A DNA stretch of 64,000 bases. Origin: Escherichia coli (GTDB lineage: Bacteria > Pseudomonadota > Gammaproteobacteria > Enterobacterales > Enterobacteriaceae). The translations under genes were made by a program, and so were the position numbers. Location of the stretch: the NCBI RefSeq assembly GCF_030013205.1, contig NZ_CP122648.1; one strand, 5' to 3'. This document shows positions 1 through 5,079 of this stretch, one piece after another. Within the stretch, counting starts at the first letter, position 1. Each line of letters starts with the position of its first letter. The notes under the pieces were generated by a model. The model ran no database searches and was not told where the DNA came from. It saw only the letters and a program-made list of their open reading frames with translations.

Positions 1-63
1 AGTTCCGGCCAGCAGGTTATAAATTTTTACAGTACGTGATTGTTCACTCATTCTGAATGCCAT
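1..63 (-). CDS. tfa: Tail fibre assembly protein Tfa, N-terminal 21 codons only (gene runs off window start)
   Basis: Reverse complement of 1-63 translates [21 protein letters not shown], matching lambda-type Tfa N-terminus; ATG overlaps stf stop (TAATG). Confidence 0.7.
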   Translation of the reverse strand, partial: MAFRMSEQSRTVKIYNLLAGT

Positions 64-1724
64 TATGCAAGCCTCACAATATAATTAAATGCGATGTTTT
101 TAACGGTGTTTTCCGCGTTACCAGCAGCGTTAACGGTGATGGTGTGTCCATGTGAACCAATCGCAACAGAGTGCGTATGAGCGCCAATACCAACAGTGTG
201 TGCATGTGCCCCAGCACTTGTAGCGGTACCTGATACTGAGTGGGTATGTGCGCCAGAAGAAGGCACAGTTCCATTCCCCACCACCGTGCCACTTGATGCA
301 CCATCAAGCCAGTCGAAATTCATACCTCCACTGTTTGGTCTCCTTAATGGAACGGTATGTGTATGTGCGCCAGCACTATTTGCAGTACCAGATACATTGT
401 GGGTATGTGCACCAGTGTTATTCGTTGATTTAGTACCGTAATCAAACGACGATGTGGTTTTCGTACCCAAATCCGTACTGGATGCGCTGGCACTGTGGGT
501 GTGCGATTTAATGCCATCCTGTTCCTGAGACAATACGGCCCGACCACTGGCGGGTTTGCCCTTGATTGTCCAGCCGCGCATATCTGGAATAACACCAGAA
601 GGATAGGCAATAGCCAGTTTCGGATATGCTGCCTTATCAAACGTCTGCCCCTGCATGATTGCATAACCTGCAGGTGGCGTATCTGATGGCCACGGCAGCG
701 GAACACCTGGCGGAAACGCTTCAATATTTGCCGAGCCGTCAAATTTTACGCCGTTAATTGTCCTTGCCGTTTTCAGCTTTGTTGCTGTAGCAGCATTGCC
801 GGATAGTTCGCCAGAAAGACCACCGCTGAATGTCTGTTTCGCCGCCCATGTCTGAGCTTCGTCGATAATTGGCACACGTCTTGTCGTAATCGTGCGGCTT
901 CCCGGATTTCCTGAAATGCGAACCATAAAAAAGCGGTAATTCGCTTTACTTGCAGTGCTGCGCCATACATGCATTGAGCGCCCCGTACCGAAATCATCAC
1001 TCGGACCAACTGCGATGTTTATCAGGTTGCCATCAATGACGCCCCAGTCCATACCGTCGGGAATATTGGTCATGTTATCAAGCCGAACGGTTATCAGACT
1101 GCCCGGCACAAAATCGTAGGTCTGCCAGTCCAGGCTGGTGAGTTTTGCCACTGCGCCACCGATCCCCATATTCAGGGGCAACGAAAAGGAGTTATACACT
1201 TCTCGCCATTCGGTCCATGTGCTCCCGGCGTAGACGCGCTCAAAAGTGCGCCCCTGTGTGGTTTCTGATTTCCCTGTGGTTGTGTAACGCTGCCAGACAG
1301 ATACACCATCAAAACGCCTGATTACTTCCAGTATCCCAAGCAATGTCGCCCCAGCAGCGTCCAGCATCGGACCGTTTGTCGCCTTTCCTGTAACACTGTA
1401 AATACCGGGGTCGGTTAGAACATTCAAATCACCTTCGTAATAACGGCTCTCTGACTGATGACCGACTCTTAACCACGGTTCCCACTGCGGATTTGATGCA
1501 TCCCAGCTTGCCGCAAGGCAGCGAACGTACATATTCCCACGACGAGTGGTATAACGTTGCGTTCTTCCATAATTCCCGCCTTCGAGGATCTCAAGCGTCC
1601 CCTGAGCAAAGCCGCCTTCCTCTGGATAATTGCGTTCATATGAAGCTATAGCCGAGCTACTGTTACGCCATAAACCAAGATGCTCAGCGGCTCCAAGCGT
1701 ATTCAGGTCTATAGTCGTACTCAA
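63..1724 (-). CDS. Side tail fibre protein, lambda Stf-like C-terminal region
   Basis: 553-aa ORF; C-terminal half has [52 protein letters not shown], His-rich GAHTH/GAHAH boxes and ends NYIVRLA; followed by tfa. Confidence 0.8.
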
Positions 1725-2000: not shown

Positions 2001-2384
2001 TTAGTCTTGTAGCTGCGCTGTCCTGCTATGCAGCAAAGCGGCGTACTTTAATGCGTCCTGTGCTTTCTGGAATTTAAGTGCATAGTCAGTGGCGATTTTT
2101 TCCAGTTCAGCGATTCGGTTGTCTTTGGTTTCCAGCCAATCAAGTAGCGCCAATACTTCAGGATCCCCGACATCCAACACTGTTACGCGTGATTTTTCAT
2201 AATGTTCGTCGGCAAGAGTTCGACCAATTTTGAAATCTCCATCATCACCATAACCGGAGCAGCCATAAACAACCTGTGCTCCAGATATTCGCTGAATTGA
2301 CATTTCTTCGCCGCAAATAGGGCATTTTGGTACTGGTGCAGGTGAATAACGTTCACGTAATGCCTGATAGTTGATTTTGCTCAT
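2001..2384 (-). CDS. Hypothetical protein, CPxCG zinc-ribbon-like motif plus predicted C-terminal coiled coil
   Basis: 127-aa ORF with ATG start, same strand as stf; no recognisable family. Confidence 0.4.
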   Translation of the reverse strand: MSKINYQALRERYSPAPVPKCPICGEEMSIQRISGAQVVYGCSGYGDDGDFKIGRTLADEHYEKSRVTVLDVGDPEVLALLDWLETKDNRIAELEKIATDYALKFQKAQDALKYAALLHSRTAQLQD

Positions 2385-2447: not shown

Positions 2448-2876
2448 TTATTCAGGAAATAACGCCCTGATATTTCCGGCCATCTGACTGGTTATCTGTG
2501 CGGTTGGTACTGGCTGTGACAGGGGGCGTTCTGTCCTGGTTTGTGTCACTGATAACGCCTCATCGTCAGCCCATGCAGCCAGTCGGTAAGCCTCTGCCGG
2601 ATTCATTTTCAGAAGTGCCAGCCCGGCCAGAAAAGCCACGCGTTGGCCGCTTTTGCGGGCTTCCGGTGTAAGGCTGTCCAGCCAGGCGCATGCTTCGCTT
2701 TCGTTCTTGACGGCCGCAGGCTTCAGATAGAAACTTATCTGAGTAAGTCTGAATGTGTTCAGTTGCTGGATGCACTGGCTGAAAATCCCGATGAACGGCT
2801 GGCTGTCGAAATCCTTCTGTCGACCGGGGCGCGATGGGGCGAGGTAGCGGTACTGGAGCAGCGCCGTGTTCTTCAT
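2448..2876 (-). CDS. Hypothetical ORF, possibly an orphan 3' gene fragment; 5' part is antisense to integrase fragment
   Basis: 142-aa ORF; only the part below ~2700 lies outside the integrase fragment; no convincing RBS for internal starts. Confidence 0.2.
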   Translation of the reverse strand: MKNTALLQYRYLAPSRPGRQKDFDSQPFIGIFSQCIQQLNTFRLTQISFYLKPAAVKNESEACAWLDSLTPEARKSGQRVAFLAGLALLKMNPAEAYRLAAWADDEALSVTQTRTERPLSQPVPTAQITSQMAGNIRALFPE

Positions 2877-3221
2877 TGTCGAATCACTTTTTCAAAAACG
2901 AAGAACAGCAAAAACCGTACCGTTCCTATTTCTGAAAGCCTGTTTGAAAAGATCAAAAAACGGGGCGGGAAACTGGTGTTTCCGACGCTGGATTATCCAT
3001 TGGTTCGCGATGTCATCAAAACGGTCGCATCTGATGTTCCTGACGGCCAGGCTGTTCATGCGCTGCGCCACACCTTCGCCAGTCATTTCATGATGAACGG
3101 CGGCAATATTCTGACGCTCCAGAAAATTCTGGGGCACGCAAAGATTCAGACAACGATGATTTATGCCCATCTTGCGCCGGATTACTTGCAGGATGCGGTG
3201 AGATTTAATCCAATAGCTTGA
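2730..3221 (+). pseudogene. Tyrosine recombinase (P2 Int family), C-terminal catalytic domain only; N-terminal half absent
   Basis: Motifs LSTGARWGE, HALRHTFASHFM, LGHAKIQTTMIYAHL resemble P2 integrase C-terminal half; frames upstream of ~2700 show no integrase-like sequence. Confidence 0.65.
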
Positions 3222-3231
3222 AGGTAGGAAA

Positions 3232-3615
3232 ATGAAAGATATTGAACATTCAGGGGAAATGGAAAAGAAAAAACGGGAGTTTATTAAAAAACTGGAATCG
3301 ATAACGCCAAGAGAATTCTTCCGTTTTTTAAATGAAAAAAACGTCACTGTGGTTTGCCTTGGGTGCGGACTGAAAGATACCCAGATAACTGCCACTACAG
3401 GTAAGTTAAATCTCCAACAACTCCTGGATGGTGAAAAAGGGGAAGAGTTTATGACGTACTTCAGGCTTGAACCAGGTCACCCAGGTGATAGTGATGCGAA
3501 TTATTACTACAAATCTTTTTGTGAGAACTGCGGTTATATAACTATGCATGCAGTGACTCCGGTATTGAACTGGTTGGGATCGCAAAAAAACCAGGAAGGG
3601 TCAGGTGATGAATGA
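3232..3615 (+). CDS. Hypothetical protein with two CxxC pairs (zinc-ribbon-like), low-GC cargo gene
   Basis: 127-aa ORF, AGGTAGGA RBS 5-12 nt upstream of ATG, 10 nt after integrase stop; CLGC and CENC motifs. Confidence 0.55.
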   Translation: MKDIEHSGEMEKKKREFIKKLESITPREFFRFLNEKNVTVVCLGCGLKDTQITATTGKLNLQQLLDGEKGEEFMTYFRLEPGHPGDSDANYYYKSFCENCGYITMHAVTPVLNWLGSQKNQEGSGDE

Positions 3616-3907
3616 GTATACTTATATCACGGGTTTTTCCATTCCGTATCCAGGAGGAATTCAGGTGAGCAATCGCAGAAGTCAGGCAAGTCGTGATGAG
3701 TTCGCTCTTGATAGCCGTGTTGCACGAATGGAGTCTGATATCTCATACATCAAGAGAGATATTGAAGAGCTGAAGAGCGATCTCAAGGATGTGAGAGGCG
3801 ATATTGATAAGATACGCACAACAGATTTCAGGCTCATGTTTGGTGCGTTGATTACTACAGCCTTGGGGTTAGCTGGCTTAATGGCGAGAGGTTTTCACTG
3901 GATTTAA
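3605..3907 (+). CDS. Hypothetical small membrane protein: coiled coil plus C-terminal transmembrane anchor
   Basis: 99-100-aa ORF (GTG 3605 or ATG 3608) overlapping upstream stop (ATGAATGA); AGGAAGG RBS; hydrophobic C-terminus FGALITTALGLAGLMARGF. Confidence 0.55.
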   Translation: MMNEYTYITGFSIPYPGGIQVSNRRSQASRDEFALDSRVARMESDISYIKRDIEELKSDLKDVRGDIDKIRTTDFRLMFGALITTALGLAGLMARGFHWI

Positions 3908-4015
3908 GATCCACAAAGTGACCACATCTCTGTTATTTGTTGTGGTTGGCTGTGTTTTTGTGTGTCTGTAAGTCTTTGATAATTATCTAACTTATTGATT
4001 TTTGTTTGTGTTTAT

Positions 4016-4040
4016 GGCCGCTCTGCGGCCTTTTTTCTTT
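4016..4040 (+). terminator. Rho-independent terminator-like hairpin upstream of btuC
   Basis: GGCCGC-TCTG-CGGCC stem-loop followed by TTTTTTCTTTT. Confidence 0.45.
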
Positions 4041-4098: not shown

Positions 4099-5079
4099 AT
4101 GCTGACACTTGCCCGCCAACAACAGCGACAAAATATTCGCTGGTTATTATGCCTGTCAGTTTTGATGCTGCTGGCGCTTCTCTTAAGCCTTTGCGCCGGT
4201 GAACAATGGATCTCGCCAGGTGACTGGTTTTCTCCTCGAGGCGAACTGTTCGTCTGGCAGATTCGCCTGCCACGTACGCTGGCTGTATTGCTGGTTGGTG
4301 CGGCGTTGGCTATATCCGGCGCTGTAATGCAGGCGTTATTTGAAAATCCTCTGGCAGAACCTGGACTACTTGGCGTCTCTAATGGCGCAGGCGTGGGGCT
4401 TATCGCCGCGGTATTGCTTGGGCAAGGGCAACTCCCCAACTGGGCGCTGGGGCTGTGTGCGATTGCTGGCGCGCTTATCATCACTTTAATACTCTTACGT
4501 TTCGCCCGTCGTCATCTTTCGACCAGTCGGTTATTGCTGGCTGGCGTTGCATTAGGGATTATCTGTAGCGCACTAATGACGTGGGCTATCTACTTTTCCA
4601 CCTCTGTTGATTTACGTCAGCTGATGTACTGGATGATGGGCGGTTTTGGCGGCGTAGACTGGCGGCAAAGCTGGCTGATGCTGGCATTGATCCCCGTGTT
4701 GTTGTGGATCTGTTGTCAGTCCAGACCGATGAATATGTTAGCACTTGGCGAGATCTCGGCGCGGCAACTGGGTTTACCCCTGTGGTTCTGGCGCAATGTG
4801 CTGGTGGCAGCGACCGGCTGGATGGTTGGCGTCAGTGTGGCGTTGGCGGGTGCTATCGGCTTTATTGGTCTGGTGATCCCACATATTCTCCGGTTATGTG
4901 GTTTGACCGATCATCGCGTATTACTTCCCGGCTGCGCGCTGGCAGGGGCGAGCGCATTGCTGCTGGCCGATGTTGTAGCGCGCCTGGCATTAGCTGCTGC
5001 AGAGCTGCCTATTGGCGTGGTCACCGCAACGTTGGGTGCGCCGGTGTTTATCTGGTTATTGTTAAAAGCAGGACGTTAG
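4099..5079 (+). CDS. btuC: Vitamin B12 ABC transporter permease
   Basis: 326-aa ORF matching K-12 BtuC; btuCED order. Confidence 0.95.

Follow-up and report, generated by a model that had tools for sequence, protein, structure and literature searches.

The window analysed here is a stretch of 64,000 nucleotides (nt) of Escherichia coli DNA (NCBI RefSeq assembly GCF_030013205.1, contig NZ_CP122648.1), and this report concerns two small genes near its beginning, the open reading frames (ORFs) ORF1 and ORF2, which lie between a fragment of a P2-type integrase gene (int) and btuC (start at 4099). Their coordinates and those of the neighbouring features are collected in Table 1. In the initial annotation, which had been made from the letters of the sequence alone, the two genes were picked out as small low-GC ORFs with Shine-Dalgarno sequences and a stop/start overlap, and these observations are borne out: the GC content is 40-45% across the pair versus 50-58% in the flanks, a Shine-Dalgarno-like sequence precedes each gene, and the genes overlap by 8 nt (ATGAATGA), with the ATG of ORF2 at 3608-3610 and the TGA of ORF1 at 3613-3615. 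The int stop codon (TGA, 3219-3221) is followed by a gap of only 10 nt and then by ORF1, leaving no room for a separate promoter between the two genes. No terminator-like site was found within 3221-3907, and the sole one on the plus strand 3' of ORF2 is the hairpin of the att core described below. In identical DNA of strain K_EC180, RefSeq has the same two coding sequences, both annotated as hypothetical proteins. Compared with relatives at 56-96% identity, the ratio of nonsynonymous to synonymous substitution rates (dN/dS) is 0.09-0.21 for ORF1 and 0.15-0.23 for ORF2; these low values, together with the many homologues of both, show that the ORFs are real genes under purifying selection and not chance ORFs.

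The ORF upstream of the pair had been read as a P2-family integrase fragment, and this is correct: it is the 3' half of the gene, matches the phrog_1 integrase family (8e-45) and XerC/D-type NCBIfam models, and is called a tyrosine-type recombinase by RefSeq (2763-3221). Homology to the intact prophage of E. coli TUM9803 begins mid-int at ~2760, and from 2760 on the fragment is 91.7% identical to that prophage at the nucleotide level; as an integrase it shows 86% amino acid (aa) identity. On the other side of the pair, the att arm at 3908-4015 is present in 298 of 5,426 complete E. coli genomes, with btuC adjoining every time, and prophage-free genomes (nearly all E. coli) match the window from 4016 onward only. 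Because the 25 base pairs (bp) at 4016-4040 are repeated just after ihfA, they represent the att core. Integration into the ihfA terminator regenerates a terminator copy at both prophage ends, i.e. after ihfA and after ORF2. These comparisons make the pair the final coding sequence of a prophage whose integration site is the ihfA terminator, and the att-core hairpin is likely the terminator of the predicted int-ORF1-ORF2 transcript.

To follow the pair beyond the window, loci were pooled from RefSeq E. coli, GenBank phages, public assemblies and IMG/VR, and every ORF1 homologue was checked by script; the locus scans used the narrower alignments A1 and A4, because A2 and A3 proved overly diverse for this purpose. 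Wherever DNA was available past the ORF1 homologue (54 loci), a gene on the same strand starts between -10 and +4 nt from the ORF1 stop; its product always has a Gly-rich N-terminus, then a coiled coil and a transmembrane (TM) helix at the C-terminus. The pairing persists at 20-35% ORF1 identity with an ORF2-type partner that can barely be aligned, and the start/stop spacing in most relatives is -13 to +7 nt. Thus, the two genes, which the initial annotation had taken for a co-expressed pair, behave as a unit that is co-oriented, translationally coupled and kept in 54/54 informative loci.

The pair occurs in a small number of recurring contexts. Where the P2-like prophage is intact (E. coli TUM9803, Raoultella, Klebsiella and Serratia), the genes follow one another on a single strand as C (a helix-turn-helix repressor gene)-int-ORF1-ORF2-att. 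Aeromonas-type P2 relatives have the order C-(another gene)-ORF1-ORF2-int, and a placement between C and int was seen only in these (L006, L025) and in L015; for K139/PhiO18P-like phages, Rousset et al. 2022 (PMC9122126) describe cI-int as a hotspot of defence systems. The lambdoid phages of Enterobacter have the pair immediately behind the gene for a CI-like S24 repressor, of which two different alleles occur in this position. The post-cI region, which holds rexAB in lambda and bstA in BTP1, is a known mosaic hotspot whose genes have the use of a highly active repressor promoter in common (PMC8585504). Finally, the pair of SPN3UB-type Salmonella/Klebsiella siphoviruses belongs to a mosaic block of morons and arc/ant genes that separates the tail chaperone region from the tape-measure gene. 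Because Pc drives C and int together in the P2 lysogen, relatives of the pair occupy the post-cI site and no terminator separates int from the end of ORF2, it is a reasonable inference that in intact prophages the pair would be expressed with the lysogenic operon (Pc/PRM).

Two neighbours of the pair deserve a separate remark. In the A. hydrophila prophage, a 267-aa gene (L006 5188-5991) with a coiled coil, a probable TM segment and a weak Flk_N match lies between C and the pair and is extra cargo in the described cI-int hotspot. In Salmonella phage SPN3UB, the lipoprotein gene gp27 (L003 6042-6356) lies two genes downstream of the pair near the arc/ant genes, and the moron block of this phage may be a cluster of exclusion-type morons.

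The product of ORF1 had been described as a 127-aa protein with two CxxC pairs of the zinc-ribbon type. In an alignment of 96 homologues with a mean identity of 20%, all four cysteines (C42, C45, C97, C100) are invariant, as is Trp114. This conservation supports ORF1 as a four-Cys zinc-ribbon-type protein, and it is predicted to be cytoplasmic. A confident AlphaFold2 model built on this deep alignment (predicted local distance difference test score 88.9, predicted template-modelling score 0.76) has two N-terminal helices, a beta core that bears the Cys pairs and a C-terminal helix with Trp114. With the ORF1 profile, a collection of 1.84 billion cluster representatives yields 196 at E<=1e-3, all of them stand-alone proteins of about 100-170 aa. 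ORF1 falls in the PHROG family phrog_4293, which has no functional annotation, and has no match in Pfam, NCBIfam, PADLOC or PDB sequences; no DNA-binding autoregulator domain was recognised in it. Weak matches to Lar, YnfU, ComFB and eL42 were set aside as reflecting zinc-knuckle composition.

ORF2 has a variable, non-coiled N-terminus (residues 1-33), a coiled coil at ~34-72 (nt 3707-3823) and a TM helix at ~76-93 (nt 3833-3886) that is followed by ~5-6 residues with a conserved GFHWI end. Of the architecture initially ascribed to it, the coiled coil and the C-terminal helix are both present, but the coiled coil is central rather than N-terminal. ORF2 lacks a signal peptide and is predicted to be a tail-anchored membrane protein with its bulk in the cytoplasm. 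The comparison with XhlA-like proteins also holds up: 8 of 27 ORF2 relatives match Pfam XhlA (PF10779) at E<=1e-3 and 17 of 27 at E<=0.1 (best 5.5e-7), several database homologues carry a precomputed PF10779 match, and ORF2 has the XhlA-type architecture of a small protein with a coiled coil and then a single C-terminal TM helix. XhlA is the best-matching Pfam family of the ORF2 group, and we regard ORF2 as a weak member of it by sequence. Lysis by PBSX requires the membrane protein XhlA along with a holin, XhlB, and an amidase, XlyA (PMC5589764), and because this only studied relative acts at the membrane, a membrane-lesion role of ORF2 is plausible. An XhlA-domain gene with a single TM helix, for which no function is given, has also been described next to cI in Mannheimia haemolytica lambda-like phages (PMC4553209). 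Among 36 diverse ORF2 members, the mean pairwise identity is 78% in the last 26 residues (TM helix and tail), 53% at the start of the coiled coil and 33% in the N-terminal part. That the TM helix is the best-conserved segment and is rich in small residues (FGAIIAVALGLAGLMAKGF) suggests that it does more than anchor the protein. Weak matches of ORF2 or its alleles to SMC, Rad50, Lpp, SlyX, ZorA and LmuB were set aside as coiled-coil composition.

A comparison of the locus upstream of btuC across the E. coli genomes, as suggested in the initial annotation, reveals that the slot between int and att of this prophage lineage holds four alternatives among the 298 genomes (Table 1). The first genes of the FRIK2069 and DLI.5a alleles belong to the ORF1 family (E 2e-36 and 3e-23, respectively), and their partners match the ORF2 profile. 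By sequence, then, a single system occurs in this phage lineage in three highly diverged versions that replace one another at the same position; they add up to 141/5,426 genomes (2.6%). Because the fourth alternative, in 158 genomes, is an unrelated gene at the same site in related prophages, an essential phage function of the pair is ruled out. The initial annotation had invoked integrase-proximal cargo slots of P2-like prophages as established hotspots for anti-phage systems. The slot is indeed variable, but it is not an established hotspot: the described sites are gpA-gpQ next to cos in E. coli P2, psu-int in P4 and cI-int in K139/PhiO18P-type phages (PMC9122126), and the window pair, between int and att, is at none of them. 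It shares with them the character of a variable accessory slot in P2-family prophages, and its Aeromonas-type relatives do sit in cI-int. The pair is absent from PADLOC, which includes the candidate systems of Rousset et al. The argument from context is therefore stronger when it is made from the lysogenic C-int operon and the post-cI placement than from an int-att hotspot.

The pair is also part of a larger theme, which the initial annotation had not recognised. When IMG/VR was scanned with the conserved core of ORF2, 79 loci came up, in which the ORF2-type gene is nearly always preceded by a tightly coupled small gene of varying type; at least 5 unrelated upstream partner types are coupled to the ORF2 core (Table 1). 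A CI-like S24 repressor gene lies immediately upstream on the same strand in 33/82 ORF2-family viral loci when scored with a home-made repressor hidden Markov model (HMM), and a PHROG search found a CI-like repressor as the upstream same-strand neighbour in 13 of 20 sampled loci. In a collection of 5.8 billion proteins, the ORF2-core profile matches at least 1,711 protein clusters, all of which are named hypothetical or, automatically, 'Haemolysin XhlA'. These relatives identify the ORF2-type cassette with its variable partner as a widespread prophage family at rexAB-like sites to which no function is assigned.

One partner family deserves mention in its own right. It is characterised by the motifs 'C(R/P)YGHG' and 'W(R/V)C..CGY.ELFD', has no match in PHROG or PADLOC, and probably represents another zinc-binding fold.

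Table 1. Features at the locus, alternatives in the int-att slot of E. coli and upstream partners of ORF2-type genes. Positions refer to the window unless a locus number (L) is given.
Feature	Position	Strand	Remarks
ORF1	3232-3615	+	127 aa; ORF listing and direct reading of the sequence
ORF2	ATG 3608 to 3907	+	99 aa; alternative GTG at 3605 gives 100 aa
3' half of P2-type tyrosine integrase gene, 5'-truncated	2760..3221	+	homology to intact TUM9803 prophage
Shine-Dalgarno-like sequence of ORF1 (AAGG/AGGA)	3221-3229	+	read from the sequence
Shine-Dalgarno-like motif of ORF2 (GGAAGGG)	3594-3600	+	read from the sequence
Prophage-side att arm (attP-derived), 108 nt	3908..4015	+	marker of this P2-like prophage lineage
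att core, 25 bp: ihfA intrinsic terminator hairpin and T-run (GGCCGCTCTGCGGCCTTTTTTCTTT)	4016..4040	+	duplicated after ihfA at the island's other end (K_EC180, L001 3800-3824)
Window allele: ORF1 (127 aa) and ORF2 (99 aa)			16 genomes
O157:H7 FRIK2069 allele: 166-aa protein and 145-aa 'DUF1640' coiled-coil/TM protein	L141 1461-2499		39 genomes
DLI.5a allele: 120-aa protein and 145-aa coiled-coil/TM protein	L143 1684-2483		86 genomes
E2348/69 allele: unrelated single 131-aa gene	L142 2107-2502		phrog_14142; 158 genomes
Partner type: ORF1 zinc-ribbon family			~22 loci
Partner type: shorter zinc-type protein			'CRYGHG...CxxCGYxELFD'
Partner type: beta-rich protein, ~140 aa			phrog_5893
Partner types: several small helical proteins; others
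Second zinc-type partner loci	L059 4765-5001; L072 2682-2921; L076 2540-2899; L124 2720-2944; L139 2725-2955

In agreement with the initial annotation, which had seen no match by eye, neither protein can be assigned to a known toxin-antitoxin, holin or defence family: neither scores above threshold in NCBIfam, PADLOC or Pfam, the only PHROGs matched are phrog_4293, phrog_3556 and phrog_20262, all of unknown function, and PDB sequences searched with a profile contain no match below E 0.1. There are nevertheless instructive parallels with known systems. Like lambda RexAB, the pair consists of two genes, presumably expressed from the prophage, with one product predicted to be cytoplasmic and one predicted to be in the inner membrane, relatives of the pair lie directly downstream of cI on the same strand (PMC8585504), and the proposed logic, in which a sensor or regulator would control a membrane effector, is analogous. 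The RexAB-like site, downstream of and co-oriented with the repressor gene, is occupied by the lambdoid relatives and in the 33/82 loci mentioned above, and in P2-like prophages the pair follows C-int. However, no RexA/RexB-type match was found in PADLOC, NCBIfam, Pfam or PHROG; RexB is a channel protein that spans the membrane several times, while ORF2 has a single C-terminal TM helix and a coiled coil; the 127-aa zinc-ribbon protein ORF1 is unlike RexA, with no sequence or profile similarity; and here the partner gene comes first and the membrane-protein gene second, with translational coupling. PBSX XhlA of Bacillus subtilis is likewise small and combines a coiled coil with a single TM helix at its C-terminus, but is encoded in the xhlA-xhlB-xlyA lysis cassette, whereas ORF2 is found in lysogeny operons and has an additional variable N-terminus and a dedicated upstream partner. 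The mycobacteriophage Sbash genes gp30/gp31 reportedly provide, as demonstrated by Dedrick et al. in 2017, a lysogen-expressed defence against heterotypic phages, and similar prophage defence pairs lie between integrase and repressor genes. They, too, form a two-gene module of a membrane and a cytoplasmic protein in the integrase/repressor region of a prophage, but the protein families are unrelated, the host belongs to another phylum, and for our pair a defence function is an inference.

The interpretation in the initial annotation, a candidate defence, abortive-infection or toxin-like pair, is partly supported. We propose that the pair is an allele of an accessory (moron) cassette that temperate phages express in the lysogen, most likely for Rex-like protection of the lysogen against other phages, and we give this reading a probability of roughly 0.4. 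The case for a lysogen-expressed module in anti-phage conflict is built from the placement in lysogenic operons, the sporadic presence, the extreme allelic divergence, the conserved membrane component, the swappable partners and the purifying selection on each allele. In this model, ORF2 would be the constant effector, a tail-anchored inner-membrane protein that oligomerises via its cytoplasmic coiled coil and whose TM helix, once released, would perturb, permeabilise or depolarise the inner membrane. ORF1 would be the variable cytoplasmic zinc-ribbon partner that docks on the variable N-terminus of ORF2, and ORF1 (or another partner) would either hold ORF2 inactive or sense an infection cue, thereby gating the membrane activity. 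In kind, the pair would represent a membrane-acting module of prophage lysogeny operons from a large and modular family. A more far-reaching version, which we consider possible but doubtful, is that this pair would be the first to be noticed of a large class of modular immune cassettes, as yet unrecognised, in proteobacterial prophages, in which one conserved XhlA-like, tail-anchored, pore- or lesion-forming effector would be combined with interchangeable small sensors and expressed from repressor/integrase operons, with each partner tuned to a different phage trigger.

Several observations weigh against Rex-like defence, the case for which is drawn from sequence and genomic context. A position in the lysogenic operon is guilt by association, and such slots also hold non-defence morons; moreover, the tail-region context of the SPN3UB-type pairs does not fit a repressor operon. 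Some ORF2 relatives follow a repressor or antirepressor-like gene with no separate partner (L132 2962-3213, L114 2929-3186), so that the two-component sensor/effector logic is not universal; in these loci the partner is either dispensable, or fused or missed. The ORF calling and the repressor HMM behind the partner and repressor counts are crude, and the IMG/VR loci are partly redundant. ORF2 itself matches Pfam XhlA only below threshold (independent E-value 0.0045, 17.6 bits). No model in PADLOC-DB v2.0.0 was matched by ORF1, ORF2 or their neighbours, and the alternative alleles and partners gave only weak coiled-coil matches to ZorA and LmuB there. A literature search that did not cover the prophage screen of Brenes & Laub 2025 returned nothing on XhlA and defence, on the RefSeq accessions of the pair, or on DUF1640 and phage. 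Lastly, a point that the initial annotation had missed, the copy in the window no longer has the repressor gene C, its promoter Pc or the 5' half of int, and has lost with them the RexAB-like placement downstream of a repressor gene. No sigma70-like promoter was found upstream on the plus strand of the window, and because of these losses the cassette, deprived of its native promoter, may be silent here.

The same placement in the lysogeny operon would also be expected if the pair mediated superinfection exclusion, with ORF2 tethering the variable partner to the inner side of the membrane and the entry of phage DNA or ejection proteins being blocked without cell death. A variable partner would suit the recognition of fast-evolving phage ejection proteins, and the SPN3UB-type pair has other morons around it in the interval from tail chaperone region to tape-measure gene, a position analogous to that of the HK97 exclusion moron gp15. 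However, only ~5 residues of ORF2 extend beyond the TM helix, so that almost nothing is periplasmic, the TM helix is the most conserved part, which suggests more than anchoring, and no homology to SieA, SieB, Imm, gp15 or an exclusion-annotated PHROG was found; we therefore regard exclusion as unlikely. An addiction module of the toxin-antitoxin type, in which ORF2 would be a small membrane toxin, the upstream partner (ORF1) its labile or stoichiometric neutraliser and defence a secondary effect, appears improbable to us as well. The pair shares with type II systems the classical layout of two short genes with a stop/start overlap and the putative neutraliser first, and it lies at the very end of the prophage beside att; the combination of one conserved downstream protein with many unrelated, interchangeable upstream proteins recalls the mix-and-match evolution that is typical of toxin-antitoxin pairs. 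But neither product matches a toxin-antitoxin family in NCBIfam, Pfam or PADLOC, ORF1 has no recognisable DNA-binding antitoxin domain that could serve in autoregulation, some ORF2 relatives are apparently partnerless, and the intact TUM9803 prophage has RelE-type and TumE-type toxin-antitoxin genes elsewhere. The joint loss of ORF1 and most of ORF2 in strain ETEC4068 (see below) is uninformative on addiction.

The relationship to XhlA itself raises the question of whether the pair serves the phage's own cycle, either as a holin accessory or lysis timer, as for PBSX XhlA, which is required with XhlB and XlyA for lysis (PMC5589764), or as a regulator that is tethered to the membrane and acts on induction or on the choice between lysis and lysogeny. 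The tight linkage of the cassette to repressor and integrase genes is in line with such a role. Against it, no holin or endolysin gene adjoins the pair in any locus examined, the neighbours being integrase, repressor, att site and tail-region morons; the operon is the leftward lysogenic and not the late one; the presence is sporadic, with the unrelated single gene taking the same site as noted above; and a hypervariable partner is hard to square with housekeeping. A role in the phage cycle is, in our estimation, rather improbable. The idea of a secreted or surface haemolysin or virulence factor has its only basis in what Pfam calls the family, 'Haemolysin XhlA', and in annotations that adopt this name, e.g. 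in the M. haemolytica lambda-like phages (PMC4553209), and we give it almost no credence, because ORF2 has no signal peptide, is tail-anchored and is predicted to be largely cytoplasmic. The XhlA of Xenorhabdus is a large secreted protein that is unrelated to these ~100-aa proteins. It is this protein that the M. haemolytica annotation cites (PMC4553209), while the characterised small XhlA is the PBSX membrane protein (PMC5589764).

The element around the window copy is composite and decaying. The genes to the left of the int fragment are on the other strand and comprise a plasmid-type partition gene, an Ea22-like gene and a tail-fibre gene. The cut in int at ~2760 abuts the plasmid-type partition/stability gene at 2448-2762 (-). 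The ORF at 2001-2384 (-) encodes 127 aa with a Cys-rich, zinc-ribbon-like N-terminus (CPICG...GCSG) and a coiled-coil tail, matches phrog_368, is labelled ead/Ea22-like by RefSeq and is unrelated to ORF1. Further left, a tail-fibre-like ORF of 553 aa at 63-1724 (-) has repeated His-rich 'GAHTH(S/T)V' motifs near its C-terminus; it has a TTG start call and may be truncated or a pseudogene. In the sister strain ETEC4068 (L011 4275-6013), parM and a fragment of gpA (replication endonuclease) are kept, while the int fragment and ORF1 are gone, as is ORF2 except for 41 nt. These last 41 nt of ORF2 were considered as part of the att core and ruled out, because the core is the 25-bp ihfA terminator 108 nt downstream; the match is a deletion scar. 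By sequence comparison, the deletions in the window and in ETEC4068 represent two independent events. At the far end of the island in K_EC180 (L001 4088-8329, beyond the window) are a Hok/Gef toxin gene, an ogr/Delta zinc-finger gene, a complete HxsDBCA (His-Xaa-Ser radical S-adenosylmethionine) system and an IS66 element within tail genes.

If the pair does act in defence or exclusion, a common, compact (~0.7 kb) and highly modular system would be added to the prophage arsenal. This would account for the recurrent pairs of genes annotated as 'hypothetical protein' or 'haemolysin XhlA' beside cI, C and int in phages of Enterobacterales, Aeromonas, Pseudomonas-like and other Proteobacteria, and the XhlA family would gain a function outside lysis cassettes. 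Because diverged alleles are present in pathogenic E. coli, including O157:H7 and porcine enterotoxigenic E. coli, the system could affect phage susceptibility, typing and therapy. The design with a constant effector and a variable partner would also offer a natural system for understanding how small sensors gate a single-helix membrane effector. Even if the pair turned out to be an addiction module or a regulator of the phage cycle, a widespread gene pair would have been defined and its 'haemolysin' annotation corrected.

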